From positions 37,240 to 101,239 of the forward strand of contig JBPXJQ010000029.1 of NCBI GenBank assembly GCA_051715345.1: a stretch of 64,000 nucleotides of DNA. Direction: 5' to 3'. Under the pieces are notes generated by a model that worked only from the letters and a program-made list of their open reading frames with translations, made no database searches and was not told the origin of the DNA. Position 1 is the stretch's first letter. The number at the start of each line of letters is the position of its first letter. The translations under genes were made by a program, and so were the position numbers. Source of the stretch: Candidatus Blackallbacteria bacterium. Its GTDB lineage: Bacteria > Cyanobacteriota > Sericytochromatia > UBA7694. Positions 6,870 to 56,176 of the stretch are shown one piece after another.

Positions 6870-7902
6870 GCAGCGATTCCACGGTTTTTATGGCGGTCTG
6901 CATGCGTTGTTCCCAACTGCCAGATATGAGCGTATAGGGCAGATTTTGGCTTTTGAGTAGGGCTTGGCAGCGGGCGAAAAAATCGTCCCCTCCTTGGGGC
7001 AGGTATCGTACTTCGTCATCGACCCAAGGCACATCTGGGGCACACAGCAGATAATGATCAAAGTGCTGACGCTTTGCCAAGGCTTCGATTGTCCTGTCTC
7101 GGTGCTGAAAGAGCACATCATTCCAAATGGTGGTGACCCAGATCTCCGTGTCATAAACGATCAACCCTTGCGTCGATTGCTTGAGAGCCTGAGCTTCGAT
7201 TGCTTTTTGGGTGGCCCATTGGCCGCGGGCAATCTGGGGCATGTCTGCGACTACGGGCCGCATGCCTTTGGCCTCGATCCAGGTTCGGGCGTATTCGGGC
7301 ACCCATTGTCCTTTAAAATGGCTTGCCAGGTTTTGGGCCAGGGTACTTTTGCCTGTAGACTCAGGCCCCATCACAGCCACCCTTTTGAGATAGTGGCGCC
7401 GAACTGGGGGAGGCAACATATCCCAGTGTTTGTGTGGGTTTGCACGAATGGCTGTGCCGCTGATTTGAAAATTTTCGCGGCCGGGATCGACGGGCATAAA
7501 TTGCGCACCCAGTACCTCTGCCAATTTCCAACCATAGTCGTCGGAGGCAAAGACCAGATCGGGTCTTTGGGGTAAAATACGCTCCAGGCTGGCTTGCCAA
7601 ATTTGCCAAAAATGGGGGTCTTCGTGAGGGTATTGGGGGTTTTCGTCACTGAGGTGAAGGACCTGCAACTGTGGATAAATGGAAGGAGGAAAGATTTCTT
7701 GAAGCATCTTCACACGCAATTCTCCGGCGATACTTTCACTTTTTAGGCTTCCCAGCACAACACAGAGATGGTCCACGGTCTGCAGGGCAAATTCAATCAG
7801 GTAGAGATGGCCGCGGTGGGGGGGTAAAAATTTGCCCAAAATCATGCCAAAGGAACCGGGTTTTGGATGCTGAAATTCAGTCATTTCGTTGTTTTTGTCC
7901 AT
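6844..7902 (-). CDS. nadR: NadR-type bifunctional NMN adenylyltransferase / ribosylnicotinamide kinase with no N-terminal HTH
   Basis: Nucleotidyltransferase HxGH motif (GKFLPPHRGHLYLIEFA) followed by a P-loop kinase module (VAVMGPESTGKSTLAQNL). Confidence 0.6.
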   Translation of the reverse strand: MDKNNEMTEFQHPKPGSFGMILGKFLPPHRGHLYLIEFALQTVDHLCVVLGSLKSESIAGELRVKMLQEIFPPSIYPQLQVLHLSDENPQYPHEDPHFWQIWQASLERILPQRPDLVFASDDYGWKLAEVLGAQFMPVDPGRENFQISGTAIRANPHKHWDMLPPPVRRHYLKRVAVMGPESTGKSTLAQNLASHFKGQWVPEYARTWIEAKGMRPVVADMPQIARGQWATQKAIEAQALKQSTQGLIVYDTEIWVTTIWNDVLFQHRDRTIEALAKRQHFDHYLLCAPDVPWVDDEVRYLPQGGDDFFARCQALLKSQNLPYTLISGSWEQRMQTAIKTVESLLKPGAEPN

Positions 7903-8087
7903 TTGTGACTTTTATTACAAGTATATTTTACATTTTTTCCTCTGGTATTCAAGGATCCAACAGGTTAAGATATATGTAAGAAGTTATAAAATCTCTCAGA
8001 TCTGGCTGCAATCTCGCTGTGATCTCTGAGCGGTTTTGGAAAAGTGAATTGAATCAGATGAATTGGTGCCACAGCACAGAAGCAAAA

Positions 8088-9125
8088 ATGCCCAAGCGAC
8101 TGGCTTTTCTGGGTTGTGCTTTGGGTTTGATTTTTCTCGGGCCGGCCTGTGCCCAGGCTCTGTCTGCCGCTGCTCCCTCTTTGCCAACCCCACCGCAAAC
8201 CTTGTTGGCGCCCATTCCAGGGCATATCCGTCCTTCGGTTTACCTCACTCCAGCTCCGCCTTCTCCCGCAGATTTTCATTTGCGTGAAGTGCAAGAATTG
8301 CAGCGACGTTATGGAATTCATGCCGCTCAAAACCCAGTCAATCAGGCTGTTACTTTGGCCACAGATAGCTTGGGCTGGCGCGATCATCAGGCTTTAATGA
8401 CAATCTCCAGCTATGCCGATGTGATTCAAACAGCCGCTCAAAAAGAAAATCTCAATCCTGCCGTTTTGGCTGCCATTCTCTTTGATGAAATCCGTCACCA
8501 AAAGCCAACAGAAGAAGTCATGACTCAGTTGGGGCTGGCTCAAACTCTGGGCCTGGCCCAGATCAGTCTGCGCGAGTTGGTGATGCAGGGATTTTTTGAT
8601 AGCGACTTGCGTCAATTGCACGCCAAGGGCCATTTTGATGTGGCATTGCAAGATCTTCAGGCCACAGGCAGACTGGCCTCAAACAAAAATTTTCGCAAAA
8701 TCAGTTTAAAAGAATTGCACACCTATTTGCTCCCACCCCAAATTTTGGCTCATTTGCCAGCCGAACTGATCGAAAAAGGCCAAGCCGCTCTGCTTGACCC
8801 GCATGAAAATATACAGATTTTGGCCCGTCAATTGGCCCGGGTGCGTCAACAACAGGGTATTTCTGCACAGCAGCGGTTTGAAAATTTAGATAAATTTGCT
8901 GTGGCGCACAGTCTGGCTCGGGTGGTTATTTTTCACAATGGCCGTATGGATTATGCCCATAAGATTCTCAATACTTTGCGTCTGCCCCAGCTCGAAGTGG
9001 CCCTGAGCGGCTGCTACCATGCCCGTCATCGGGGCACAGAGGCGGTTGAACTTGAACCCAAACCCGCGCAAGGGGCCCAATCAACTTATCAAACCCGGTA
9101 TTTGCCTTGGTTGAACAAAGGCTGA
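8088..9125 (+). CDS. Secreted protein, possibly lytic-transglycosylase (SLT)-like
   Basis: Signal peptide MPKRLAFLGCALGLIFLGPACAQA. Weak SLT-like E-x-x-NP-AV segment (KENLNPAVLAAIL) and LGLAQTLGLAQ. Start moved from 8019 to ATG 8088. Confidence 0.35.
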   Translation: MPKRLAFLGCALGLIFLGPACAQALSAAAPSLPTPPQTLLAPIPGHIRPSVYLTPAPPSPADFHLREVQELQRRYGIHAAQNPVNQAVTLATDSLGWRDHQALMTISSYADVIQTAAQKENLNPAVLAAILFDEIRHQKPTEEVMTQLGLAQTLGLAQISLRELVMQGFFDSDLRQLHAKGHFDVALQDLQATGRLASNKNFRKISLKELHTYLLPPQILAHLPAELIEKGQAALLDPHENIQILARQLARVRQQQGISAQQRFENLDKFAVAHSLARVVIFHNGRMDYAHKILNTLRLPQLEVALSGCYHARHRGTEAVELEPKPAQGAQSTYQTRYLPWLNKG

Positions 9126-9134
9126 AATTTGGGG

Positions 9135-11105
9135 TTAAAGGCCTTTCAGGTTTCGGCCTTCACTGGCAGCGACAATTTCTTTCAGCGATCGGGCGCCCAG
9201 GGTATCCCCTTCATGGGGGACGGTCACACGCATGACTTCGTCAAGGCTGGTAATCCCTTGAATCACCTTGTAGACGCCATCTTCGGCCAAACTTATCATC
9301 CGTTGACCACTGCGCGCCAGCTCGCGCAACCCAGAGGCTGTCATACCCCTTCTCAGAGCTTGACGCAGGCTTTCGTTGAACTCCAACACCTCATGTAAAG
9401 CGCTAAGACCTTTATAGCCTTCATTCCCACAATCATCGCAGCCATTTGCCTGCCAAAAGAGGTAGTTGTTCCGGTCATTGGCTGAGATAAATAGGTTTTT
9501 AAGCTCATCTGGGCTGGGGGCATAGCTGCTTTTGCATTGCTCACAGAGTTTACGTACAAGCCGTTGGGACACCAACAACAATGGCACGGGTGTGGTGAGA
9601 AAGTGCTGAGCCTGTATATGCTGTAAGTGGTGTAAGGCAGCCGTTGTATCACAGGCATTGAGAGCCGCCAAAACCTTTTTTCCGTTTAAAGCTGCTTGAT
9701 CAATTCTTTCGCTGACACGTTGGTCCTTGACTTCGCCCACGACCACCACATCTGAGTCGTAATCTATCATGGCCTCAATCAGATCGCTGTAGCTGTCTTT
9801 GCCCCCAGCACCATAATAGTTTTGGATGACCCCAGTAATGCTGTAATCAACCGCGTCTTCAAGGGTTAAAATCGCATTATTTGGATGATTCAGGTGCGAT
9901 ATGGCAGCATAAAGTAAGGTGGATTTGCCCGATCGCTGGGGGGAGACCGCCAATAAAACACCCCCCGCACGGTTGAGCAGGGTTTCAATTTTTTTCTGGT
10001 TTTGGGGCGAAAAGTCCATGTCTTCAATACTTAACACCCTGTGGGGAATATAAGCGATATGTAATACCAAATTTTCGCCCCACACACCGCTAAAATATGA
10101 AATTTTTAACTCCACCTGTTGGCGGCCAATCGTGGTGATCAGCCGTTCTTGCCAATAGTCTTCCCGTTTGATTCGAAAAGGGGTTTTGATATAGTCAATT
10201 AAGGGTGGACCCAGGCGCAAAGGCAAGTCGGTCCGGTGTTTTAAAACGCCATTGACGCGGTAGCGCAAACGAATGAATTTTTCTTGACTCTCTAAATGAA
10301 GGGCCGTGGCCCCCGCTTCCACTGCGCTGCGGATCAAAAAACTGGCAATCGGTGCGGCCTGTTCTTTGGTGGGTTTGGCGTTATTGCTCAAATTAAGCAA
10401 CTTTTCGTCTAGTTCTTGGGTGCTGTCTGGGTTGTTTTTGGCTTTGCGCCGCGGCTTAAATAAATAGGTTATCGTGTTGATAATTTCGCTTGCCGGCGCA
10501 ATGGCCGGCGTAATTTTACATTTAAAGCGATCCAGTAATGCTTGCAATAACTCGCTATTCAGGGGGTCCGACATCACCACCACCATTTGGTTGCCGTAGC
10601 GGTGCACAGGCAGACATTCATGCTGCCTTAAAAATTGTTCATCCATTCCTTTGAGCAATTCGGGGTCGATCAACTCGGGTGAAGGCAAAATTCGGGGTAT
10701 ATCCAATTGCATGCTCAAAGCATGGGTCAATTGTTGTTCCGAGATAATGCCCGATTGGACCAAAAGGGTGCCAAAACGATTGCTGGAAAAACGCTGCTGT
10801 TCTAAAACATGGTTGAGTTGTTCCTGGTTGATCAAGCCCATATTGATCATCAATTCGCCGATTTGAATGCGTTTGTGGTGACGGCTGAGAAAGCGCTGTA
10901 AATCCTGTTTGGTAATTAACTTCATTTCCACGCAGATCAGCCCCAGTGGTTTGTAATGACCAGGTTGGCCCAAATCACTGATCATGCCTGACTGTTTTTG
11001 CATGGCCAGCGCTTTTTGCAGTCCGTCTACGGTTAATAGCCCTTCGCGAACCATCAGATCACCGAGTTTCATGGGTTTGTTTTTGGGCGAGGGGGTGCGT
11101 TGCAT
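9135..11105 (-). CDS. GspE/PilB-family secretion ATPase with three N-terminal MshEN-type (T2SSE_N) c-di-GMP-binding motifs
   Basis: Three tandem [RK]LGxxLxxxGxxxxxxLxxALxxQ motifs (KLGDLMVREGLLTVDGLQKALAMQ, IGELMINMGLINQEQLNHVLEQQ, RFGTLLVQSGIISEQQLTHALSMQ). Walker A reads SPQRSGKST, which deviates from the GPTGSGKST consensus. Asp box EDAVDY, Walker B VVVVGEVKD and a C-terminal tetra-Cys CEQC...CDDC are present. Confidence 0.7.
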   Translation of the reverse strand: MQRTPSPKNKPMKLGDLMVREGLLTVDGLQKALAMQKQSGMISDLGQPGHYKPLGLICVEMKLITKQDLQRFLSRHHKRIQIGELMINMGLINQEQLNHVLEQQRFSSNRFGTLLVQSGIISEQQLTHALSMQLDIPRILPSPELIDPELLKGMDEQFLRQHECLPVHRYGNQMVVVMSDPLNSELLQALLDRFKCKITPAIAPASEIINTITYLFKPRRKAKNNPDSTQELDEKLLNLSNNAKPTKEQAAPIASFLIRSAVEAGATALHLESQEKFIRLRYRVNGVLKHRTDLPLRLGPPLIDYIKTPFRIKREDYWQERLITTIGRQQVELKISYFSGVWGENLVLHIAYIPHRVLSIEDMDFSPQNQKKIETLLNRAGGVLLAVSPQRSGKSTLLYAAISHLNHPNNAILTLEDAVDYSITGVIQNYYGAGGKDSYSDLIEAMIDYDSDVVVVGEVKDQRVSERIDQAALNGKKVLAALNACDTTAALHHLQHIQAQHFLTTPVPLLLVSQRLVRKLCEQCKSSYAPSPDELKNLFISANDRNNYLFWQANGCDDCGNEGYKGLSALHEVLEFNESLRQALRRGMTASGLRELARSGQRMISLAEDGVYKVIQGITSLDEVMRVTVPHEGDTLGARSLKEIVAASEGRNLKGL

Positions 11106-11181
11106 CGCTGGATTTCCTTGAAAGAGAGATTACACATGGGTTGGTCTCCAGTGTACACAATCGCTTTCGCGCTTGGAAGGT

Positions 11182-12915
11182 TCAGATTTGGTAATTGAGA
11201 AAGAGACTGGCGACAGGTCCATTGCTTTCGAGGCCGTAGCTCAGATTGATGTTTTTGTCCCCTTCTTTCCAGGCCTTCGAAGTACTGGGATAATACCGCC
11301 AACCCGCATTGAGGCCCAAGATAAAATCCGGATTCACCTGGTAGGCCAACCCCAAAAAGGCGGTGCCGCCAATATTGCTCTGACTTAAATCCCTGACCCC
11401 TTGGCTCAATTGGCCATTGATTTGTCCCATTCTGAAACCCAGATCGAATACCCATTGGCGGAAGTGAAAACGCTTGCTCAAACCACCTTCGAGGGTCATC
11501 GCCACCAAAGAGTTTGAATTATTGCCTTGGCCCTGTGAGAGCATGCCCACGCTACCATTGAGATTGAGGTAGGTTTCCGACCAATTTAAAAAAGGGGCAA
11601 GACTGTAGAGGATTTCGACCGAACCTTCGGGTTGGAAATCTTGAGGCCCCAAACGCGGATCGAGGGTAAGAGAGCCAATGCCCCCTCTAAAGTTGACCTG
11701 AAAATCTGTCTTGGCATATTCCAAATACTGATCTCCCAGTTCAAAATTGCGCTGGGCAATGATCGGCTCTGCCAAGAGATCTTTTTCATTCAATTGGCGC
11801 AATTTGAGAAAACCAATTTCGCTGGCTTTTTTATCTGGTCCGAGGTATTCCACAATTTTATAGCCATGATCCATTTTTAGACCCAGGCTCTGGGGTGTTT
11901 CTCCGCCTGGCAGTGAAAGAGTGACCCGATCCTCTTTGAGATCGTGGGCCATGACCTGGCCTTTGACGGAAAATTCGGGGTTGTTGCGCAATTTTGCGAC
12001 CAACTCCTGCATTTTGTAGAGGGTGGTGACCCCCTCTAAAAGTTGATTCACTTTATTGCCCGAATCTGAGCCAAAGAGGGATATTTGGCCGAGGGCCAGT
12101 TCCAAGACCTGGTTGGTTAATTTTCCAACTTGGGCACCGGGTTGCAATTCCGCTTCGAGTGCTTTGGCTGCAACGCCCATCATCGCAGGGGCAGGGTCTT
12201 CTTGTTCGAGCCGGGCAAAGACCTGATCAAAAGGCGATAATTTGCGCAATTCTTCCAGAAAAACTTTGCCATCACTGGGATTTGGGGCCGATCCCAACTC
12301 GAATAACATGCGCTCGCGCAGACCCTCGAGATTGTCGATGGGCAGTAGTTTCACAATTTCCCAGCTCTGGCTGTATTGTTCTAAGACCTTGGGGCCTTCT
12401 TGTTTGAGGCTGTAGATCGGCAATTGCAATGTCATCTGCGAGCGAAAGCTGAGGTACCATTTCTCCCCTTCTTTGCTTTTCTCAGGCCCGCCGATTTGGA
12501 TCGGGCTGAATTGCCATTGGGGAGCCATTACATAAGCCGCATTGAGCAGTTTTTGGGTTTCACTCCAGGTCACCACTTTTTCGCCCAATTTGAGATCGGG
12601 GGTTTCTTGGCCCGCAGCAAGTTCTCCAGCGTGTTCTTGTTGGTAAATTCTGGCAGTGTTTAAAAAGTCTGGCAAACTCACCTCTGTGTCGAGGCCCTGC
12701 AGGACATAGTCAAAGCGAGGCAATTCGCGTTGAAAATAGCGGCTTAAAAATTCATCCAAGGGGTTTTGGGCCTGTTGGTAAAGCGAGATATATTTGCGCT
12801 GGAATTCGCTCAGGGGAGCGGATTCTGCAGGCTGGGCTTGAACAGGCAAAGTCCCCATTTGTAAGTGCACAAGGCTGATAAAAAGGATTGAGAGCGTAAA
12901 AATTGGGTTCAACAT
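11182..12915 (-). CDS. Secreted protein, possibly an outer-membrane beta-barrel, immediately upstream of the GspE-like gene
   Basis: Signal peptide MLNPIFTLSILFISLVHLQMGTLPVQAQ. The C-terminal region has alternating hydrophobic residues and ends ...ASLFLNYQI. Same strand and 76 nt upstream of the ATPase gene. Confidence 0.45.
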   Translation of the reverse strand: MLNPIFTLSILFISLVHLQMGTLPVQAQPAESAPLSEFQRKYISLYQQAQNPLDEFLSRYFQRELPRFDYVLQGLDTEVSLPDFLNTARIYQQEHAGELAAGQETPDLKLGEKVVTWSETQKLLNAAYVMAPQWQFSPIQIGGPEKSKEGEKWYLSFRSQMTLQLPIYSLKQEGPKVLEQYSQSWEIVKLLPIDNLEGLRERMLFELGSAPNPSDGKVFLEELRKLSPFDQVFARLEQEDPAPAMMGVAAKALEAELQPGAQVGKLTNQVLELALGQISLFGSDSGNKVNQLLEGVTTLYKMQELVAKLRNNPEFSVKGQVMAHDLKEDRVTLSLPGGETPQSLGLKMDHGYKIVEYLGPDKKASEIGFLKLRQLNEKDLLAEPIIAQRNFELGDQYLEYAKTDFQVNFRGGIGSLTLDPRLGPQDFQPEGSVEILYSLAPFLNWSETYLNLNGSVGMLSQGQGNNSNSLVAMTLEGGLSKRFHFRQWVFDLGFRMGQINGQLSQGVRDLSQSNIGGTAFLGLAYQVNPDFILGLNAGWRYYPSTSKAWKEGDKNINLSYGLESNGPVASLFLNYQI

Positions 12916-12954
12916 AATTTTAATTTTAGCGTTTTGTCACATGGACTTGCCCAT

Positions 12955-12983
12955 TTGGCCTGCATCACTGCGTCTGTTATACT
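12955..12983 (+). promoter_or_regulatory. Putative sigma70-type promoter for gene 13027: -35 TTGGCC, 17-nt spacer, -10 TATACT
   Basis: Hexamers read directly from the sequence in the divergent intergenic region 12916-13026. Confidence 0.4.
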
Positions 12984-13026
12984 GTCAGGGCAGATTTCGC
13001 AGAGACAGTGGATAGATTAAACAGCC

Positions 13027-15747
13027 ATGAAAACCCCCTATCATCATCTTCCCGTCATCAGGCATGCAGGTCTGTTGGAAGAGCTAAACGGGATCCCCGC
13101 TTATCTCAATCCAGCAGGATATCAGGCTTATGGGACGTCTTTTAGTTGGCCGTTTTACAGCGGCGGCATATCCGGTAATATCGACGTAGTCGAGAGTCTC
13201 AGTGCCTCCGTGGTCGAAGACCTCCCGCAGGGTTGGTATATGCTGCGCACCTATTATTTTGGCCAATTATTGGAGCGCAAAGCACTGCTCAAAGCCAATG
13301 GCAACCTTGAAGTCAGTTCTCCCGGTCCGATCGCAGCCTCCCAGACAGTCATTTTGGCTGAGCTTGAACATGAAGATCTGCGTTATACCGTGATGCTGCG
13401 CGAGACCAGTCAAGGTTGGGTCAACAAAGACGGCAGTGGCCAACAGGTATTTTTGCTCTACCGCAGCATGACCCGCAAACTCGAAAGGGTGATTCGCGAA
13501 AAGATGCCTGAAGAGGGCTTTGCCAAATTGCGGGTCTCTTTGGGTGAGCAGCCCACACTTTTTCCGATGCAACTCTCACCCAGTGTTTTGGATGTCACTG
13601 GTCGCCGTGTCCCCCTGTTTTACAGCGATGCGATTGAACGCTTGGCCGATTTGCTTTTATCTCACCGCCCGCCTTATGGCCGCACTTTGGTCTATGCAGG
13701 GGGCGATCTTGACTATTTTGATCAATTTGCACTGCACGAAGTCTTTCGTCTTTTGGGCGCTCGCAATCTCAGTGGCAGCAGTGAGTTTGGTCTGCGGGCC
13801 GCCGCCAGAACGCTGGAACTCCAGGCCGGTGAAGAATCGCCGATTTTAACTTTGGAACAGGCCCTCGAAGGCCCCAATAGATTGTTCTTGATGTCGGGCT
13901 GGAATGGCTTTGTCTCTCATTTGCCCGTCTTTAACCAATTGGTTTTGCGTGAAGATCTCGACGCCTGGTTGGTCGATGTCTGTGTGACTGAAAGTGCCAA
14001 AATTTTGGCTGCGCGACTGGCGCCTGAACGGGTTTTATTGGTCCGTACGGGTGGCGATGCCCATTTTGCATTGGCTGTGGCCCATGAAATTGTTCACAAT
14101 TATCCCGGTGCTTTGGATCAGGCGTTTATTTCACAGTACTGTGATCGTGAAAGTCTGGAACAATACTTAACCCTGGCCCGCTCGGAATTCTTCCAAATTG
14201 AACGCACTGCAGAAACCATTTCTCCCGATCCGGCTTATACTGATCGGCTGGTGGCGGGGATTCGCGCCATCGCCGCTCGTTTGGTTGAAAGTGAAAGTGT
14301 TCCCGTGCATTTGGCGGGCTCGGGTCTCTCCCAGACGTCCGGGGTCGTCGGCCACGGACTTTGGAACAATCTCCTGGCCATGTTGGGTAAATTTGGTCTG
14401 TCCTCAGAGGGCACTCCCCGTGGAGGTTCTTTGCGCCTGCCTTACCAGCACAACGAGGAGACCCAAGTACAGGGTTTGGCCCAGGATCGTTTCTTTGGCA
14501 ATCTTCCCTTTAACGAAGTGGGGGCAAGAGAGTCCGCCCTGCGTATGGGCCTGCCTGAAAATGCCTATCACCGTCTGCTCAAAGAGCCCATGCGGCCTGT
14601 CTTGGAGTATACGACGCCTACCCAAGCCGGTCAGCGCGAGCTGATTATTTGTATCGGCCAGGGCCTTGAAGGCCAAATGGTTGACAGGGGCCGTTGGAAA
14701 GACAAACTGAGTGCCCCCGAAACCACTTTGGTGGTGATCGATCCCATGCCCGGCCCTTTCTTTTTGCGCCATGCCGCCCTGTGTTTGCCCACTGCCCCCG
14801 AGGTGGCTTCGGCACGGCTGTACCAAAATGGCGAATGGCGCTTGACTCTTGCCTTTCCCCGCCGCACGGCCCCACCCGAGACACGCACGGCTACGACTTT
14901 GCTTTACGACACCATGGCTGAAGTTTCCAGGTCTTTGCGTGAAGAAGAAGATTTTCGCGAGGGCCATCCCGATTTGGCCAGCTATTCAGCCCAGGGCTAT
15001 TTACAATCGCGTTTTGAACCGCCCGAATGGAATTGGGGCGGGGGGCTTGAGCGCATCGATGGCGAAGTCAGCCGCTTTCAACTCTGGGACCGAATCCAGT
15101 CTTATCTCACTGGCACTGAAGAGACCCGGGGCCCACTCTATTGCCGTCCCGAACACAGCGATGGCATGCCGTTAAACTGGGACGAAGTTCTCTCAGCCGG
15201 AAGTTTGATTTATGGCGGGGTCGGCAAAAACCGCCACCGCCAGGGTGGGTGTGAACGCGCACCATTTCAAGACATTTACCGCGAACCCGTGTCCTTTCGC
15301 TTCTTTGTGCCCAAAGAAGGTGATTTGCGCATCCCCAATGGAATTGTACTCAATACGGGCTGTTCAACACTCAGTGACAATGTGGCCTGGATTCGTTTTG
15401 CGATTTCCTCGTTTCATTCCAGCAAGGTGCTTGATTCGCTTGATATGCCCAAACACAAGCCGTTGTTTATCTCACAAACCCTGGCCGATGAAATGGGCTT
15501 TAAAAAAGACCAAAAAGTCAAAGTCAGCAATGTTGAAACGGGCCGCTCTTTGATTCTCAAAGTTGAGCCCACATCACGGCTCAAAGGCCACATGGCCTAT
15601 TTGAGTTATCACCATTCCCATGCCGAAATTCAACAGGATTCTTATATCAATATCCTTTCCTACCGCAGTGTTCGCTGTGCCTATTCGGGACTGCCTTATC
15701 TCAAGTCCACTCTGATTACTCTCGAAGCTTTGCAAGAAGGAGACTGA
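13027..15747 (+). CDS. Molybdopterin (Mo-bisPGD) oxidoreductase-fold protein that lacks the N-terminal Fe-S cysteine motif
   Basis: Central LFLMSGWNGFVSHLP resembles the xWGSNPxxxxP motif. The C-terminal segment PLFISQTLADEMGFKKDQKVKVSNVETGRSLILKVEPTSRLKGHMAYLSYHH follows the Molydop_binding domain pattern (xISPxDAxxLGIxDGDxVxVxSxRGxxxLxAxVT...). The first ~200 aa contain no cysteines and there is no TAT signal. Confidence 0.45.
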   Translation: MKTPYHHLPVIRHAGLLEELNGIPAYLNPAGYQAYGTSFSWPFYSGGISGNIDVVESLSASVVEDLPQGWYMLRTYYFGQLLERKALLKANGNLEVSSPGPIAASQTVILAELEHEDLRYTVMLRETSQGWVNKDGSGQQVFLLYRSMTRKLERVIREKMPEEGFAKLRVSLGEQPTLFPMQLSPSVLDVTGRRVPLFYSDAIERLADLLLSHRPPYGRTLVYAGGDLDYFDQFALHEVFRLLGARNLSGSSEFGLRAAARTLELQAGEESPILTLEQALEGPNRLFLMSGWNGFVSHLPVFNQLVLREDLDAWLVDVCVTESAKILAARLAPERVLLVRTGGDAHFALAVAHEIVHNYPGALDQAFISQYCDRESLEQYLTLARSEFFQIERTAETISPDPAYTDRLVAGIRAIAARLVESESVPVHLAGSGLSQTSGVVGHGLWNNLLAMLGKFGLSSEGTPRGGSLRLPYQHNEETQVQGLAQDRFFGNLPFNEVGARESALRMGLPENAYHRLLKEPMRPVLEYTTPTQAGQRELIICIGQGLEGQMVDRGRWKDKLSAPETTLVVIDPMPGPFFLRHAALCLPTAPEVASARLYQNGEWRLTLAFPRRTAPPETRTATTLLYDTMAEVSRSLREEEDFREGHPDLASYSAQGYLQSRFEPPEWNWGGGLERIDGEVSRFQLWDRIQSYLTGTEETRGPLYCRPEHSDGMPLNWDEVLSAGSLIYGGVGKNRHRQGGCERAPFQDIYREPVSFRFFVPKEGDLRIPNGIVLNTGCSTLSDNVAWIRFAISSFHSSKVLDSLDMPKHKPLFISQTLADEMGFKKDQKVKVSNVETGRSLILKVEPTSRLKGHMAYLSYHHSHAEIQQDSYINILSYRSVRCAYSGLPYLKSTLITLEALQEGD

Positions 15748-15749
15748 TA

Positions 15750-16982
15750 GTGTCGATCTCAGAAGTTCTCAAAAGCGTCCCCTTTTTTGATCATTTTACC
15801 GATACCCAAATTGATGACCTGGTGCATATGGGGCGTCCGCTCCAGACCGAAGCCGATCAAGTGCTCTTTCAGATGGGTGATCTGGCCGACAGCCTCTACG
15901 TCATTCTCAACGGCTCTGTGCGGGTCTATGGCAAAGATCCTGAGGGCAAGCCGGTTGAACTCTCCACCCTGCGCAAGGGGCAGTTTTTTGGGGAGTTGGC
16001 CCTGGTGGATGGTGGCACCCGTTCCGCCACCGTGCGCACAGGCGAACCCTGTGAATTTTTTGTGATTGAGCGCTCCAATTTTATGCGCTTGCTCTCCACC
16101 TCCCCCGAATTGCTCTCGGACGTCTTGGCGGGCATTACCAGCAAAATCAAAAGTTCAAATGAAAAAATCTTTCTCGAAATGTTGGAAAAACAGCGCTTGC
16201 AGTCGCAGATGGAAATTGATCGCCACCGCTCACTCTCTGAGATGGTGGCTGGGGTGGCCCATGAGATCAATACCCCGCTGGGCATTGTCAATGTTACAGC
16301 CAGCATGATCACGGAGAACCTGACCCCCGATCTCTTGGCCCGTGCCACCGATCCCGAACTCAAATATGTGCTCGAAGACATTCAAGAAGCAGCTCAATTA
16401 ATGCTGAGCAACATTGCCCGTGCCAATAAATTGATCCAGAGCTTCAAAAGTGTTTCAGTCAATCAGATTATGGATACCTTGGAAACGGGCCTGTTTGTGC
16501 AATTGGTTCAAGAGGTGATAGACCTGTTTAAAATCAAGGCCCGTCAGGCACACTTGAGCCTGGAAACTGAGTTTGAACCTGGCGTTGAGCATTTGGAATG
16601 GACGGGTTATCCGGGGTATCTGTCTCAAATTCTGATGAATTTTTTCAGCAATATCGAAAGATATGCCTATCCCGCTGGGGTCGGTGGCCGGATTTTGGTC
16701 AAACTCAGCAGTTTTGAACGCGACAATAAGCCTTTTTTCAGGCTTGTGGTGCAAGACTTTGGCAAAGGGATTCCCAAAGAAGATGTTTCCCGTGTCTTTG
16801 ACGTCTTTTTTACCACGGGGCGCGGTCAAGGGGGGACAGGCTTGGGTATGTCGATTGTGCACAATTTGGTTACGTCTGCCCTGCACGGCAGTATTACCCT
16901 CGATTCTGAATTGGGCCAAGGCACCACTGTGACGGTTGAATTTCCCCATCAAATTACCCCGCAGGAACATTTGGCCGGATAA
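15750..16982 (+). CDS. Cyclic-nucleotide-binding sensor histidine kinase (cNMP domain, HisKA, HATPase_c)
   Basis: N-terminal CAP-type cNMP domain (FFGELALVDGGTRSATVRT), H-box VAHEINTPLG and G-box GTGLGMSIV. The GTG start sits directly after the upstream stop (TGATAGTG). Confidence 0.7.
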   Translation: MSISEVLKSVPFFDHFTDTQIDDLVHMGRPLQTEADQVLFQMGDLADSLYVILNGSVRVYGKDPEGKPVELSTLRKGQFFGELALVDGGTRSATVRTGEPCEFFVIERSNFMRLLSTSPELLSDVLAGITSKIKSSNEKIFLEMLEKQRLQSQMEIDRHRSLSEMVAGVAHEINTPLGIVNVTASMITENLTPDLLARATDPELKYVLEDIQEAAQLMLSNIARANKLIQSFKSVSVNQIMDTLETGLFVQLVQEVIDLFKIKARQAHLSLETEFEPGVEHLEWTGYPGYLSQILMNFFSNIERYAYPAGVGGRILVKLSSFERDNKPFFRLVVQDFGKGIPKEDVSRVFDVFFTTGRGQGGTGLGMSIVHNLVTSALHGSITLDSELGQGTTVTVEFPHQITPQEHLAG

Positions 16983-17017
16983 GCGCCATTTGAATCCATA
17001 AGAGCAAGGAGCATCCC

Positions 17018-17944
17018 ATGATTTCATTACCTGAAAATTATTTGATTCTGGTGGTTGACGACGAGCCGGATATGCACTCGCTCAGCCGCCTGAGCTTACG
17101 CAGTTTAAAATACCGCGATCGGGGGGTGGAATTGGCCTTTGCCTCAACAGGTCAGGAAGCGGTTGAATTTATGCGCAGCCGCCCCGATACCGCCGTGATT
17201 CTGCTCGATGTGGTGATGGAAACCCCGACTGCTGGCCTTGATGCCTGTCAGTCGATTCGCCAAGAACTCGGCAACGAATTTGTGCGGATTATTCTGCGCA
17301 CGGGCCAACCAGGGGCCGCCCCCGAAAAGAAAGTGATCGAAGAATATGATATCGACGGCTATTTGGCCAAAGCCGAATTGACAACCAACCGGCTCTATAC
17401 CGCTGTGCGCACGGCCCTGAAAGCCTATGATGAATTGGTTGAATTGCAGCGCCACCGCGAGGTCTTGACCTTTTTGCATGAATCGGTCACCTCTTTGCAT
17501 ACCCTCGAAGCGTTGGAAGAGAGCCTGCAGCGCATTCTCGAAACGGCGGTGATGATTGCCCCCTGTGACTTGGCTGTCTTGAATCTCGAAACTTTTCAAG
17601 AATCTGGAGACTCACGGCGCTATGTCTTGTTTACAGGCACCAATCCCAATTCAGACGAAACCGAAGCTGCCGCCACGGCGATAGTCTCTCAGATTGCCGA
17701 AGACCCCAGCGCGCTGGCGCTCAAAGATGCGGGAATTTTTGGCAATGGTTTCCTCGTGCCTTTGGTCCTGCACAGGGATTTGGGCTATGGCTGGCTCTAT
17801 GTCGAAAACAGCCTCGAAGATCCGCTGATGTACCAAACCCTGCCCATGTTGGCGGCCCATGCTGCCAACGCCCTCTATTCCACGATTGCCCGCGAATTGT
17901 TTTTGGCCCGCAGCGGCACCTTCTTTGCTGAGATCAACGTCTAG
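17018..17944 (+). CDS. Response regulator: receiver domain plus a ~180-aa C-terminal domain of unknown function, GAF-like
   Basis: Receiver signature LVVDDEPDMH...ILLDVVM. RBS AAGGAG at 17004-17009 before ATG 17018. Confidence 0.65.
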   Translation: MISLPENYLILVVDDEPDMHSLSRLSLRSLKYRDRGVELAFASTGQEAVEFMRSRPDTAVILLDVVMETPTAGLDACQSIRQELGNEFVRIILRTGQPGAAPEKKVIEEYDIDGYLAKAELTTNRLYTAVRTALKAYDELVELQRHREVLTFLHESVTSLHTLEALEESLQRILETAVMIAPCDLAVLNLETFQESGDSRRYVLFTGTNPNSDETEAAATAIVSQIAEDPSALALKDAGIFGNGFLVPLVLHRDLGYGWLYVENSLEDPLMYQTLPMLAAHAANALYSTIARELFLARSGTFFAEINV

Positions 17945-52021: not shown

Positions 52022-54933
52022 GTGAACATTTCCGCTCTTTTGTAGACGCCCTCTCTCAGGTTGTTTTGCGTCAGCCGGAGGCCCCGGCTTTTGTCAGTGC
52101 AGAAAGCGCTTTGAGTTATGTCCAGCTCTGGGAAGAATCTGGACGGGTAGCTGCTTTTTTGGGCTCAACAGGGCTGCAACCTGGCGAGCGGGTGGGCATT
52201 TGTTTGCCCAGATCTGTGGCCTGGATTATTGCCTTGATTGGCGCATGGCGAGCAGGCATGGTGATCACGCCACTCGATCCCTTGGCTCCTGCTGAGCGTT
52301 TGGAGTGGCAACTCAAACACGCCACCCTGGCCACGGTCTTGGGGCAAGGTTCACCACCGGCGGGAATTCCACTTTCAAGCTGGCTCGATTTGGCCCTGGC
52401 ATGTGATGCTGAACCACTGAAAGATAGCCATTTGTTGCAAGAGGGCGACCCAGCCTATTTGATCTTTACCTCGGGTTCAACGGGCCTTCCCAAAGGGGTT
52501 TTACTGCCCCACCGGGGCCTCTTGCCGGTTTTAGAGGCCCAAATAGCGGCCTTTGGTTTGGGGCCAGGCTGTCGCAGTCTCTGGCTGCTTTCGCCGCTCT
52601 TTGATGCTTCGCTTTCCGATTTGGGGACCACCCTCTTGGCAGGTGCCACCCTTTATATGGACACTGGCCTGGAAAGAGATCTTGACCGCTTTAAACAAGC
52701 CCTCGCAAAATGGCAGATCACCCATCTCGATTTACCACCTTCGTTATTGCCTCTGCTCAATCCCTCCGATTTTCCCAGCTCTTTTCAGACCTTGATTCTC
52801 GGGGGGGAACCCAGTGACCCCGCCCGTCTGCGCATCTGGGCTGAAAATTTCAAGCTAATCAATGTCTATGGCCCCACCGAAACAACCATCTGTGCCTCCC
52901 TGTGTGTGGTTGATCAGAACTGGCAAGTGCCTTTGTTGGGGCAGCCTTTGCCAGGCTTTGGCTTTGCTGTTTTACAGCCCGATCAAACCCCTGTGGATCA
53001 AGGCCAAGATGGAGAATTGTGGATCAGTGGTCCCGGTTTGGCATTGGGATACGTCAATGCTTCACGCTTGACCCGCGAACGCTTCCGTGAGTTAAATGGG
53101 GTGCGTTTTTACCGCAGTGGCGATCGGGTTCAGCTTTTGCCAGGGGGGGAATTTGCTTTTCGGGGCCGACTCGATCGCCAACTCAAATGGCATGGCCAGC
53201 GCCTGGAGCCCGAAGAAATTGAAGCTGTGCTTCTGCAAGTGCCGGGTTTGACCCGTGTAGCCGTGTTTTTACACATCCAAGCCGGACAAGATGACGGCGT
53301 TTTAAGTGTTGCCTTTCAAACCCAAATGCCTGAATGTGTTGAGCAGGGCTTTTTGCAGACAACTTTAAAAGCCTGCTTGCCAGAATGGATGTTGCCTGTG
53401 CGCTGGTTTCAACCCGTCGAATGGCCACTCACAGCGACGGGCAAAACAGATTATGAAGCCTTGCAACACTTAGCGTTTGAAACGGATCTCACTTCTGAGC
53501 CCATAGAATCTCCCGAAGAGGCCCTGTTTCTCAGCCTTTGGCGTGAAATTTTGCATCGCCCGGCTCTCAGTGCCAGCGAAGCTTTGGGTGCACATTCATT
53601 GCAAAAATTGGAGTTTTTGGCCCGCTGCAGTTTACAAGGTTTGCATCTCAATCCCGAACGCCTGAGTACCTGTGATTCGGTCCGACAGATTGTACAGATT
53701 CAACACCAAACAGAAGTCAGTGGTTTGCCCGTTGAACATTTATTGCCCGACACCCAGCTCAGCCCTTCCTGGCGACGTTTTTTAGCCCAATCTCAGACCC
53801 ATGCCGTTAAAGGCAAAGGGGAGCCTCTATTAACTGGTGCCACTGGATTTCTGGGCCGCTGGCTTTTGCGCAGCTTGCTCGAAGAGGGCAAAGGCCCCGT
53901 TCACTGCTTGGTGCGGGCCCGCAATGTCGAAGAAGGTTTGGAACGGCTTTTACAGGCCCTAAAGAGCACTGGGCCTTGCAAAAATGACTGGGCGAAACGG
54001 ATTGTTCCCTGGTGTGGTGACCTTGAAGCTGAACAGTGGGGATTGCCAAATAGTTCTTGGAAACGTCTGGCATTGGCATTGGATCGGATCATTCACAGTG
54101 GGGCTCGCGTGCACCTCAGCGAGCCTTATGAGCGCCTCAAGGACCCCAATCTTAAAGGCACTCAGACGGCGCTTAAATTACAGGCTTCAGGCCGCAGCAA
54201 AGCCTTACATTATGTTTCGACCCTCTCGGTTTTTGTTGGCAGTGATCGCAATCAAGGTGTGGCTTATGAAGACGACGATCTCTCTCAGACCCGATATCTG
54301 TTTGGGGGTTATGCCCAAAGTAAGTGGGCGGCAGAGGCTTGGCTGCGCCAAAGTGGGGGCCAAGCGGGACCGCTGCAGATCTACCGCTTGGGCTTGATTA
54401 CTGGCGACACGCAGATTGGCTGGTTTCCTGAAAAAGATTGGTTTCAATGGTTGACACAGGGATTGGTCAATTTGGGTGGCATACCCCAAGACATCGACCC
54501 TGCCTGGGCCCTGGATTTAACTCCTGTGGACTATGCTGCTCGGGCCCTGTTGGCGCTTGCCAAAAAGCCTTTGCCGGGTCTTCATACCTATCATCTTGCC
54601 AATCCCAAACCACTCCTACTGGGGCAGTGGCTCACAGCTTTACAGGCCTTTGGCGTGCGTTTAGAGCGCCTGCCCCGTGCTGAGTGGCATTTGCGTATGC
54701 AGGCAGCCTTGCAAAGCTGTACAGGCCCTGAAAGTGCATCTGCACTCTTGGCCCTTTGTCGCCTGATGGGTGAAGAACAATACAAACATTTGCGCAGTCT
54801 TGATCTTTTTCAAACCACGGGCATTCGCTTTGATACCCAAAACGCGGATACTCTCTTACACCCGCAGGGACATTTTTGCCCAGCACCTGAACCTGAATTA
54901 CTTCAGCGCTACCTCATTCAGATGCTGAATTAG
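52018..54933 (+). CDS. NRPS-like carboxylic-acid reductase: adenylation, peptidyl-carrier and terminal thioester-reductase domains (A-T-R)
   Basis: A-domain motifs LIFTSGSTGLPKGV (A3), FDAS (A4, Asp present), NVYGPTETT (A5), YRSGDRV (A7), GRLDRQLKWHGQRLEPEEIE (A8), ATGKTD (A10). Carrier LGAHSL. R-domain TGATGFLGRWLL and YAQSK. RBS GGAGG before ATG 52018. Confidence 0.75.
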   Translation: MSEHFRSFVDALSQVVLRQPEAPAFVSAESALSYVQLWEESGRVAAFLGSTGLQPGERVGICLPRSVAWIIALIGAWRAGMVITPLDPLAPAERLEWQLKHATLATVLGQGSPPAGIPLSSWLDLALACDAEPLKDSHLLQEGDPAYLIFTSGSTGLPKGVLLPHRGLLPVLEAQIAAFGLGPGCRSLWLLSPLFDASLSDLGTTLLAGATLYMDTGLERDLDRFKQALAKWQITHLDLPPSLLPLLNPSDFPSSFQTLILGGEPSDPARLRIWAENFKLINVYGPTETTICASLCVVDQNWQVPLLGQPLPGFGFAVLQPDQTPVDQGQDGELWISGPGLALGYVNASRLTRERFRELNGVRFYRSGDRVQLLPGGEFAFRGRLDRQLKWHGQRLEPEEIEAVLLQVPGLTRVAVFLHIQAGQDDGVLSVAFQTQMPECVEQGFLQTTLKACLPEWMLPVRWFQPVEWPLTATGKTDYEALQHLAFETDLTSEPIESPEEALFLSLWREILHRPALSASEALGAHSLQKLEFLARCSLQGLHLNPERLSTCDSVRQIVQIQHQTEVSGLPVEHLLPDTQLSPSWRRFLAQSQTHAVKGKGEPLLTGATGFLGRWLLRSLLEEGKGPVHCLVRARNVEEGLERLLQALKSTGPCKNDWAKRIVPWCGDLEAEQWGLPNSSWKRLALALDRIIHSGARVHLSEPYERLKDPNLKGTQTALKLQASGRSKALHYVSTLSVFVGSDRNQGVAYEDDDLSQTRYLFGGYAQSKWAAEAWLRQSGGQAGPLQIYRLGLITGDTQIGWFPEKDWFQWLTQGLVNLGGIPQDIDPAWALDLTPVDYAARALLALAKKPLPGLHTYHLANPKPLLLGQWLTALQAFGVRLERLPRAEWHLRMQAALQSCTGPESASALLALCRLMGEEQYKHLRSLDLFQTTGIRFDTQNADTLLHPQGHFCPAPEPELLQRYLIQMLN

Positions 54934-56150: not shown

Positions 56151-56176
56151 AGGATTTCCTGTATTTCAATACCCAT

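Follow-up and report, generated by a model that had tools for sequence, protein, structure and literature searches.

A GspE/PilB-family protein of Candidatus Blackallbacteria with a doubled MshEN-type sensor region and an atypical nucleotide site

Gene layout of the locus

The stretch of DNA analysed (hereafter, the window) comprises 64,000 nt of Candidatus Blackallbacteria bacterium (assembly GCA_051715345.1, contig JBPXJQ010000029.1, positions 37,240–101,239 of the forward strand). Two genuine ORFs, encoding a 577-aa signal-peptide protein and a 656-aa GspE/PilB-family protein, lie on the same strand with a gap of 76 bp, in which no terminator-like site was found, and the ATPase gene has an AAGGA ribosome-binding site of its own, 9–14 nt upstream of its ATG (Table 1). 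The operon to which the preliminary description assigned the ATPase gene and its partner is at most a putative one. Paralogue groups of the ATPase were labelled A to D for this analysis, and the window gene is of type A. The convergent 368-aa ORF, ending 9 bp from the ATPase stop codon, is syntenic at every type A locus, where it occupies the slot taken by REC-GspE beside the type B paralogues; the type A gene of the window does not adjoin any REC-GspE.

When all large ORFs of the 64-kb window were scanned against Pfam, no GspF/PilC, pilin, secretin, or PilMNO domains were detected, which bears out a preliminary description of the locus, in which GspF platform, pilin, and secretin genes were said to be missing nearby. 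The same description had proposed a GGDEF regulator as the source of ligand for the ATPase; a gene for a REC-GGDEF protein is indeed located at 54930–56150, but it is 44 kb off and nothing was found connecting the two.

Table 1. Features of the locus (window coordinates)
Feature	Position	Strand	Basis
ORF, 368 aa, convergent	8019..9125	+	ORF, without family match
GspE/PilB-family CDS, 656 aa (type A paralogue, Sericytochromatia clade)	9135..11105	-	ORF; Pfam T2SSE and MshEN
N2D and CTD ATPase-fold region, aa 256–626	9228..10340	-	Pfam T2SSE, E 9e-57
Tetra-Cys zinc-site motif, C521, C524, C556, C559	9429..9545	-	Invariant in 41/41 family members
Degenerate His-box, NGKKVLAALNACD	9648..9686	-	Alignment of family members
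Atypical Walker A, SPQRSGKST, aa 388–396	9918..9944	-	Alignment of family members
MshEN_C/GSPII alpha-beta subdomain, aa 134–220	10446..10706	-	Pfam PF05157, E 1.1e-17
Sensor module 2, aa 81–133	10707..10865	-	NF053729; alignments
Sensor module 1, aa 13–76	10878..11069	-	NF053729; motif survey
Secreted-protein CDS, 577 aa	11182..12915	-	ORF; signal peptide; modelled C-terminal barrel
C-terminal 8-stranded outer-membrane barrel, aa ~405–577	11185..11703		Model

Family assignment and the sensor region

The 656-aa protein matches the Pfam families T2SSE (PF00437; 192.8 bits against a cut-off of 24.9) and MshEN (PF05157), and its AlphaFold model (pLDDT 80) has the N2D and CTD fold, resembling the cores of PilF and PilB with TMt values of 0.83–0.86 in a Foldseek comparison. 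The preliminary reading as a GspE-like protein with an MshEN-type sensor is upheld, the sensor region being enlarged. The top NCBIfam match is PilB (TIGR02538; E, 1.5e-87), although the protein scores far under the cut-offs of both equivalog models (294.6 against 675.65 for PilB; 261.9 against 630.25 for T2SS GspE, TIGR02533). Homologues with 47–98% identity are found in Sericytochromatia, Blackallbacteria, and Melainabacteria, among which the type A ORF is intact and, in no fewer than eight separate sequence clusters or MAGs, kept at 66–98% identity.

In the MshEN receptor unit, a 5-residue spacer connects two motifs of 24 residues each (53 residues in total), and MshEN_C follows (Wang 2016, PMC5013675). 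In the window protein, four such motifs (aa 13–36, 53–76, 81–104, and 110–133) are arranged as two tandem modules, a layout shared by ~38 of 40 homologues. Module 1, modelled as four helices, contains motif 1 (KLGDLMVREGLLTVDGLQKALAMQ) and the divergent motif 2 (PLGLICVEMKLITKQDLQRFLSRH) set apart by a 16-aa insert, whereas module 2 is a full 53-residue MshEN_N unit (motif 3, a 5-aa spacer, and motif 4) that runs directly into MshEN_C and aligns to the N-domains of MshE (5HTL), PilF, and M. xanthus PilB. When the two halves were scored separately with the NCBIfam c-di-GMP_motif model NF053729 (cut-off, 38 bits), aa 1–78 alone gave 47.6 bits (E, 1e-12) and module 2 gave 60.9 bits (E, 7e-17; profile positions 1–53), both far beyond chance. 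Against the published relaxed consensus [RKPN]hGxxhhxx[GAS]hhxxxxhxxxhxx[QNKRYWST] with 11 scored positions (PMC5013675), motifs 1 and 4 agree at all 11, motif 3 at 10 (Gln at position 1, in place of R/K/P/N), and motif 2 at 8, so that each module has one motif off the consensus. The preliminary description had counted three motifs, probably because motif 2 deviates at three positions and motif 3 at the first; it had also taken two as the usual number, although tandem MshEN_N modules (PMC5013675) and multi-GSPII ATPases such as PilF have already been described. Binding of c-di-GMP does not depend on perfectly conserved motifs (PMC5013675). The N-terminal modules are predicted, from the conservation of their motifs, to bind c-di-GMP.

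Among MshEN-containing T4P/T2SS extension ATPases (PMC5013675, PMC11656802), MshE of V. cholerae, PilB of M. xanthus and Geobacter, and PilB2 of C. perfringens share with the window protein the order MshEN_N, MshEN_C, N2D, and CTD with tetra-Cys. Module 2 together with MshEN_C aligns to the N-domains of MshE and PilB, and the core folds are alike (TMt, ~0.84). The window protein differs in its additional N-terminal MshEN_N-like four-helix module, in the replacement of Walker A G1, arginine finger 2, and both His-box histidines, in the variability of the catalytic core across its family, and in having no pilus or T2SS genes nearby. A parallel for the multiplied sensor is provided by Thermus thermophilus PilF, which, like Deinococcus PilB, has three tandem GSPII/MshEN domains (PMC11731258; PDB 6f8l) and gives four separate matches to the N-terminus of the window protein (best E, 1.9e-28). 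In PilF, which is proven to be an active pilus motor, the repeated unit is the entire GSPII domain with its N and C subdomains, whereas the window protein duplicates the 53-residue N subdomain only and has a degenerate ATP site.

Nucleotide site and conservation across the family

In PilT-like ATPases, Walker A and B, the catalytic Glu, both arginine fingers, and the Asp-box Glu are completely conserved, and a His-box His contacts the gamma-phosphate (McCallum 2017, PMC5424180). The Walker A of the window protein departs from GxxxxGK[ST] at G1, which is replaced by Ser, and has Arg391 in place of the second Gly of GPTG, while GKS, including Lys394 and Ser395, is retained. In the His-box, neither histidine is left (His1 is replaced by Lys476 and His2 by Asn483). 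The arginine-finger motif PQDGR of N2D reads WQER with a 3-aa deletion, in which finger 1 is kept as Arg321; finger 2 is Lys334, and the pair is accordingly incomplete. The Asp-box residues Glu416 and Asp417, the Walker B residues Asp450 and Asp452, and the catalytic-position Glu458 are all present. The atypical Walker A, the altered His-box, and the intact tetra-Cys noted earlier were all confirmed, and the first two proved to be family traits. Since the window protein keeps Lys394, Ser395, Glu416, Asp417, Asp450, Asp452, Glu458, and the finger-1 Arg, it could bind ATP and hydrolyze it slowly.

A comparison of 41 family members with 10 canonical relatives (Table 2) suggests that the nucleotide pocket of the family has been remodelled and freed from catalytic constraint. 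Within the type A clade, too, the Glu at the catalytic position is changed to Asp or Arg in 3 of 11 sequences. Two replacements are themselves conserved, Arg391 in 39 of the 41 members, at a position where Gly is invariant in the canonical relatives, and Lys/Arg at 476 in all 41, pointing to a remodelled rather than a merely decayed site. The case for degeneracy is strongest for the family as a whole and less so for the window protein.

Table 2. Catalytic positions in the family and in canonical relatives
Position	Family members	Canonical relatives
Arg finger 1	R in 12/41	9/10
Arg finger 2	R in 5/41	10/10
Walker A G1	G in 9/41	10/10
Walker A Lys	Arg instead in 4/41	K in 10/10
Asp-box D	D in 15/41	10/10
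Catalytic Glu	E in 21/41	10/10
His1	0/41	10/10
His2	5/41	10/10
Tetra-Cys	41/41	10/10

The mean pairwise identity is highest in module 1 (73%), and falls through module 2 (64%), MshEN_C (60%), and N2D (56%) to the CTD core (46%). In canonical GspE proteins, conservation is usually greatest in the ATPase core, and the order in this family is therefore reversed, with the sensor ahead of the CTD core. Both MshEN_N-type modules, MshEN_C, and the tetra-Cys zinc site appear to be under strong constraint, while the catalytic core diverges about as fast as the remainder of the protein. For a same-genome control, the core from Walker A to the His-box was compared between type B proteins and the adjacent REC-GspE across the same genome pairs: the type B core shows 44–47% identity in five of six pairs and 70% in the closest, against 88–93% for the canonical REC-GspE. 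A family in which the catalytic residues are not conserved, and in which the core diverges fast beside a same-genome canonical GspE kept at ~90% identity, does not support the earlier designation of the protein as a motor.

Paralogue groups and the conserved locus

Types A, B, and C occur together in four MAGs, and the MAG of the window itself has a type C copy (L024) and a contig-end fragment 100% identical to a type B protein (P0018); the window gene is an additional paralogue specific to its lineage. Copies of types B and C share one conserved locus in at least four lineages, with type B arranged tail-to-tail with REC-GspE in 10 distinct loci. This REC-GspE, whose motifs are canonical, lacks the 24-aa motifs altogether, and the locus is flanked by genes for MFS-PGA_cap (MFS-CapA), MMPL, SecF-like, GT4, and CvpA proteins. 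GspF/PilC, secretin, and PilMNO were not found in the conserved locus of the related genomes examined, and pilin-type genes are close to it in two lineages only, as a Tad/Flp set ~4–8 kb from the type B/REC-GspE pair in Blackallbacteria (L002) and as one N_methyl protein (L009). The preliminary description had allowed that T2SS or T4P genes might lie just outside the window; these loci instead support the view that the protein is something other than a plain pilus-motor paralogue whose pilus genes lie past the window edge.

The protein might nevertheless be an ordinary active extension ATPase for a T4P, Tad, or T2SS machine elsewhere in the genome, tuned by c-di-GMP in the manner of MshE and PilB, as its best NCBIfam match, its fold like those of PilF, PilB, and GspE, and the Blackallbacteria Tad/Flp set would suggest. 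We regard this as unlikely, in view of the scores far under the equivalog cut-offs, the family-wide loss of residues invariant in PilT-like ATPases, the Tad genes not being kept beside the type B/REC-GspE pair in other lineages, and the lack of GspF near any family member examined.

The neighbouring outer-membrane barrel protein

The 577-aa protein, described earlier as secreted with a beta-strand-like C-terminus, does have a signal peptide (aa 1–27, VQA/QP), an N-terminal region of mixed character that weakly matches an FlgT-like fold, and a modelled C-terminal 8-stranded barrel with a C-terminal beta-signal. The alternating hydrophobic pattern of its C-terminus is like that of OmpA/NspA/OmpX/OmpW-type barrels, from which it differs in having no sequence-family match in Pfam or NCBIfam.

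Linkage of the barrel gene and the ATPase gene is not conserved. Adjacency is confined to close relatives (five related loci, with 76–98% ATPase identity); ATPase homologues with 67% (L014) and ~50% identity are without the barrel gene, no T2SSE gene lies beside the barrel-protein homologues with 49%, 32%, and 26% identity, and in JACYMC01 both genes are present and unlinked. The preliminary description had paired the two proteins and raised the possibility of a c-di-GMP-responsive motor turned to an unknown export or assembly task; on this proposal, an active, c-di-GMP-gated motor ATPase and the upstream barrel protein would together serve a new route of export or assembly. The short same-strand gap lacking a terminator-like site, the adjacency in the five loci, and the retention of Walker A Lys, the Asp-box Glu and Asp, and Walker B Glu are consistent with that proposal, which we consider improbable: the linkage is gone at modest divergence, the catalytic core is under relaxed constraint, the 64 kb contain no inner-membrane platform to bridge a cytoplasmic ATPase and an outer-membrane barrel, and OmpA/NspA-type barrels, with their eight strands, are too small for a secretion channel. 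The barrel protein is probably a mere genomic neighbour, functionally independent of the ATPase-like protein; Sec and BAM would deliver it to the outer membrane without the latter.

Proposed role of the window protein

Because the doubled sensor is kept while the ATP site is remodelled and fast-evolving, the window protein is more likely a signalling subunit than a motor. The explanation that we favour, giving it about an even chance, is that the protein is a regulatory subunit which senses c-di-GMP and has an impaired ATP site, the barrel gene beside it being a recent arrival. As a cytoplasmic GspE/PilB-fold member of a Sericytochromatia-wide family, the protein would bind c-di-GMP through its N-terminal modules and act as a sensor or regulatory subunit rather than an autonomous motor, perhaps by joining the hexamers of a competent GspE paralogue or modulating them, or perhaps by signalling through a conformation independent of the nucleotide state, as reported for M. 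xanthus PilB. A precedent for PilB as a signalling protein, in the control of M. xanthus exopolysaccharide, has been reviewed (PMC11656802). That the gene is instead a redundant duplicate drifting to loss of function with no specific role, as its lineage-restricted occurrence as an extra copy and the drift of catalytic residues within the type A clade might suggest, is very improbable given the intact, conserved ORF, the near-invariant N-terminal modules and tetra-Cys, and the conserved new residues Arg391 and Lys476.

GspE/PilB ATPases are usually viewed as motors that MshEN switches; in this clade, the switch has been kept and duplicated and the catalytic residues of the motor left to drift. 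The pattern suggests that GspE-fold proteins can become dedicated c-di-GMP receptors or regulatory pseudo-subunits, and it fits indications from Myxococcus of PilB signalling that does not depend on the assembly of pili. The non-photosynthetic sister classes of Cyanobacteria, which are uncultured and little studied, would gain a class of receptors. Such genes should not be annotated as "type IV pilus assembly protein PilB", and operon partners should not be inferred from adjacency in close relatives alone.

A wider and more speculative reading, which we regard as unlikely, is that Sericytochromatia and their relatives possess an undescribed c-di-GMP-controlled non-pilus machine for export of an envelope polymer or lipid. 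In such a machine, the double-MshEN paralogues of types A, B, C, and D might serve as second-messenger-sensing pseudo-subunits joined with one canonical REC-GspE, the whole might drive or gate export via the co-located MFS-CapA, MMPL, SecF-like, GT4, and CvpA proteins, and the window gene might supply an additional sensor subunit. If true, these would be the first pseudo-ATPase subunits in the GspE/PilB family and the first instance of an MMPL/MFS export route with a GspE-type ATPase coupled to it.

An N-terminus with the same four motifs, among them the unusual motif 2 (P[LF]GxxCV...L[QR]R[IL]LRK[HY]), also occurs in GspE-like proteins of Desulfacinum infernum DSM 9756 (L029), a Desulfacinum MAG (L028), and a Rokubacteria MAG (L032), with 36–37% full-length identity to the window protein; the one neighbourhood scanned, that of L028, contains no GspF or pilin gene. 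Unlike the window protein, the Desulfacinum proteins keep GPTGSGKTT and the Rokubacteria protein GPTGNGKTT, all with GEIRD or GEMRD, and the two Desulfacinum proteins also keep TGHKV..TFHTDD. Since their catalytic motifs are canonical, these proteins look like the catalytically intact ancestral state of the subfamily.

Fold and sensor region of the ATPase

The two open reading frames of the preliminary description, those of the GspE/PilB-family ATPase and of its neighbour, here called the barrel protein, were both recovered, the former with its own AAGGA ribosome-binding site, in DNA of ~50% GC from a Sericytochromatia genome. A gene in MAG JBIKWL01 ('Candidatus Sericytochromatia bacterium ... 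bin207') shares 98% identity with that of the ATPase. The AlphaFold model of the ATPase (pLDDT, 80) matched the PilF, PilB, and GspE cores with a TMt of ~0.84, and the NCBI equivalog scores were well under the cut-offs (PilB, 294.6 vs 675.65; GspE, 261.9 vs 630.25). The protein consists of a GspE fold and a doubled MshEN_N sensor.

Coordinates of the features in the window and in homologue loci (L numbers)
Feature	Position	Strand	Description
Convergent ORF	8019-9125	+	368 aa; signal-peptide-like segment
ATPase	9135-11105	-	656 aa; Pfam T2SSE aa 256-626, E 9e-57; MshEN PF05157 aa 134-220
Position 476	9678-9680	-	K/R in place of His1
P-loop R391	9933-9935	-	Arg
Intergenic gap	11106-11181		76 bp
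Barrel protein	11182-12915	-	577 aa
Gene run divergent from barrel gene	13027-17944	+	906-aa protein and two signalling genes
cNMP-binding histidine kinase	15750-16982	+	in the same run
REC-DUF3369-like response regulator	17018-17944	+	in the same run
REC-GGDEF protein	54930-56150	-	diguanylate-cyclase type
REC-GGDEF protein and hybrid kinase	54930-58954	-	925-aa GAF-HisKA-HATPase-REC kinase follows
L036, L002, L009, L024	1-16380; 1-21938; 1-17971; 9348-14123		multi-paralogue locus, Sericytochromatia and Blackallbacteria
L024	8580-9140	-	186-aa protein, flagellin N-terminal domain
L014	2622-6727		two 645-aa four-motif GspE-like genes
L026	4832-11923		KSB1 MAG; GspE-like gene and neighbours

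Three copies of the 24-residue MshEN motif had been counted previously; a pattern scan gave four units (aa 13-36, 53-76, 81-104, and 110-133), a set also present in ~38 of the 40 closest homologues. Scanned separately with the NCBIfam c-di-GMP_motif model (53 residues; cut-off, 38 bits), both halves passed, with 47.6 bits for aa 1-78 and 60.9 bits for aa 79-138. Module 2 (motifs 3 and 4, aa 81-133) has the canonical 5-residue spacer and, together with the MshEN_C subdomain, aligns to Vibrio cholerae MshE (5HTL), Thermus thermophilus PilF, and Myxococcus xanthus PilB; module 1 (motifs 1 and 2, aa 13-76) is an additional MshEN_N-like unit, split in the window lineage by a 16-residue insert. Eight helices are predicted in the model of the sensor region, which would fit two four-helix bundles. 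Of the four motifs, 1 and 4 agree at every position with the relaxed consensus that Wang et al. (2016) give; motif 3 departs from it by a Q at position 1 and motif 2 at three positions. We infer that the ATPase binds c-di-GMP. More than two motif copies, earlier set against a usual number of two, have in fact been described: (MshEN_N)2 architectures are mentioned by Wang et al. (2016; PMC5013675), and PilF has three GSPII domains (PMC11731258). Across the family, pairwise identity averages 73% and 64% for the two sensor modules and 46% for the catalytic core. An exclusive association of the four-motif layout with the degenerate clade was ruled out, as proteins of Desulfacinum and Rokubacteria share it together with canonical catalytic motifs; because these outgroups keep such motifs, the double sensor predates the catalytic degeneration.

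Nucleotide-binding site

The Walker A sequence SPQRSGKST, the altered His-box (NGKKVLAALNACD), and the intact tetra-Cys site had been read correctly. The odd Walker A and His-box are family-level traits, and the whole pocket is unconstrained. According to McCallum et al. (2017, PMC5424180), PilT-like ATPases show complete conservation of Walker A and B, the two arginine fingers, the catalytic Glu, and the Glu of the Asp-box, and a His of the His-box contacts the γ-phosphate.

Residues at catalytic positions in 41 family members and 10 canonical relatives
Position	Family	Canonical
Arg finger 1	R in 12/41	9/10
Arg finger 2	R in 5/41	10/10
Walker A G1	G in 9/41	10/10
Walker A Lys	Arg instead in 4/41	K in 10/10
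Asp-box Asp	D in 15/41	10/10
Catalytic Glu	E in 21/41	10/10
His1	0/41	10/10
His2	5/41	10/10

In addition, the 'PQDGR' motif of N2D, the N-terminal part of the ATPase-fold region, is rewritten in the ATPase with the deletion of three residues. Unlike the catalytic positions, the four tetra-Cys cysteines are invariant across the family. Two basic residues are also conserved, R391 in the P-loop (Arg in 39 of the 41 members) and the K/R that replaces His1 at position 476 (all 41), suggesting a remodelled ligand site and not simple decay. In a control with four genomes, five of the six pairwise comparisons of the family member's Walker A-His-box segment gave 44-47% identity and the closest pair 70%; the adjacent canonical GspE with a REC domain (REC-GspE) reached 88-93% in those genomes. 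The ATPase combines a conserved zinc site with a nucleotide pocket that has been remodelled and evolves fast.

The window ATPase retains K394, S395, E416, D417, D450, D452, E458, and R321, and judging from these residues, residual ATP binding or slow hydrolysis may persist in this copy. It is nevertheless unlikely that the protein is an ordinary active pilus-motor paralogue: apart from the altered pocket, a Pfam scan of all large ORFs in the 64-kb window detected no GspF/PilC, pilin, prepilin peptidase, secretin, or PilMNO gene, in agreement with the preliminary description.

Barrel protein and its linkage to the ATPase

The barrel protein matched no family in Pfam or NCBIfam. Its AlphaFold model (pLDDT, 78.6; pTM, 0.73), with pLDDT >85 through the C-terminus, and the C-termini of its homologues, in which hydrophobic residues alternate and the last residue is F, L, or I, support the earlier suggestion of a β-barrel. 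Of the 19 homologues found, few carry a source annotation, and these belong to MAGs of Sericytochromatia or Obscuribacterales. The N-terminus shows a weak match to the FlgT-like (flagellar H-ring) fold.

The gap between the two genes contains no terminator-like hairpin, and the promoter and terminator search in it was uninformative; no c-di-GMP riboswitch or other RNA element matched Rfam at E ≤0.1 over 7800-13300. The linkage was examined in the neighbourhoods of three barrel-protein and five ATPase homologues, and then by tblastn over 36 loci. Five loci, L001 and L010-L013 (ATPase identity, 76-98%), share the arrangement of barrel gene, ATPase gene, and convergent 368-aa ORF. No T2SSE gene was found beside the barrel-protein homologues at 49%, 32%, and 26% identity, nor a barrel gene beside the ATPase homologues at ≤67% identity, and in JACYMC01 the two families are on separate contigs in unrelated contexts. 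The adjacency is therefore confined to the close clade of type A (the paralogue group of the window ATPase), no link between ATPase and barrel protein is conserved, and the pairing proposed earlier was rejected as evidence of a shared pathway. As is established for the biogenesis of outer-membrane proteins, a small barrel that depends on Sec and BAM requires no cytoplasmic ATPase. An export pathway made up of the ATPase and the barrel protein, as suggested previously, is quite improbable. The 368-aa ORF, whose stop codon is 9 bp from that of the ATPase, matched nothing in Pfam or NCBIfam; its synteny extends to all type A loci, and its place there is the one that REC-GspE takes beside type B.

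Paralogues and the REC-GspE locus

Twenty-six loci were recovered when GTDB species genomes were scanned. Type A (84-98% identity) co-occurs with type B and/or type C paralogues in four MAGs: with type B (~51%) in JADMKE01, with type B plus type C (39%) in CAZRFI01 and JBFWRL01, and with type C in JBIKWL01, the window's own MAG, where a contig-end fragment is also 100% identical to the type B protein P0018. In 10 distinct loci, type B is tail-to-tail with a 780-822-aa REC-MshEN(Pfam)-T2SSE protein, REC-GspE, which has canonical motifs (GPTGSGKS, EDPIEY, GEIRD, and TGHLLLSTLHTNDA) and none of the 24-residue motifs. The wider locus, read in the source lineage, one related metagenome contig, and Blackallbacteria, has the order [type C] [MFS_1-PGA_cap fusion] [MMPL] ... 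(forward), [SecF-like] (reverse), [type B] (forward), and [REC-GspE] [GT4] [CvpA] (reverse). The window gene is a paralogue specific to its lineage; elsewhere, its family is tightly paired with a canonical REC-GspE among genes of envelope-export type. Within this multi-paralogue locus, the type C gene overlaps the fusion gene, type B has four motifs, and the REC-T2SSE gene is convergent; the locus looks like a GspE-associated system for envelope export not described before. The window and the L024 protein with a flagellin N-terminal domain, encoded near type C, come from one Sericytochromatia MAG.

In L014, a type A gene (67% identical to the query) lies in tandem with a type D paralogue (49.5%) without a barrel gene; the latter has the Walker A GPQASGRST, with Arg for Lys. 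This pair is direct evidence for tandem duplication within the family. That the window gene is a duplicate in decay, as its lost catalytic residues might suggest, is highly improbable in view of the conserved basic residues. In a neighbour-joining tree (without branch support), type A groups with type B lineages, followed by D and then C, with the canonical-motif P0043 outside.

Possible role and genomic contexts

It appears an even call that the ATPase is a c-di-GMP-binding sensing or regulatory (pseudo-)subunit and not an autonomous motor. Such a subunit could share hexamers with a competent paralogue or form hexamers that interact with it; alternatively, it could signal through its conformation, a mode that has been proposed for the control of exopolysaccharide by M. 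xanthus PilB (PMC11656802). That GspE and pseudo-GspE make up a machine gated by c-di-GMP, with export through MFS-CapA and MMPL coupled to it, is a rather doubtful extension. The individual parts, GspE fold, MshEN motifs, and OmpA-like barrel, are all of known kinds; our literature search returned no description of a doubled MshEN_N throughout a family, with a degenerate catalytic site and a conserved pairing with a canonical REC-GspE in a non-pilus locus, and no papers on 'PilB' with 'pseudo-ATPase'.

Among the outgroups, the neighbourhoods scanned, those in a Desulfacinum MAG and KSB1, contained no GspF or pilin gene. The KSB1 gene keeps canonical catalytic motifs; transcribed divergently from it are genes for a TackOD1-domain protein, a GT2 (synthase-like glycosyltransferase), and an OEP (outer-membrane factor), which is another non-pilus, polysaccharide-type context.

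The REC-GGDEF protein, proposed earlier as a possible ligand source, is present as described, 44 kb from the ATPase; the adjoining hybrid GAF histidine kinase is probably its own phosphorelay partner. The run divergent from the barrel gene, in which the 906-aa protein gave only sub-threshold matches to molybdopterin-binding domains, looks like a cyclic-nucleotide signalling cluster.
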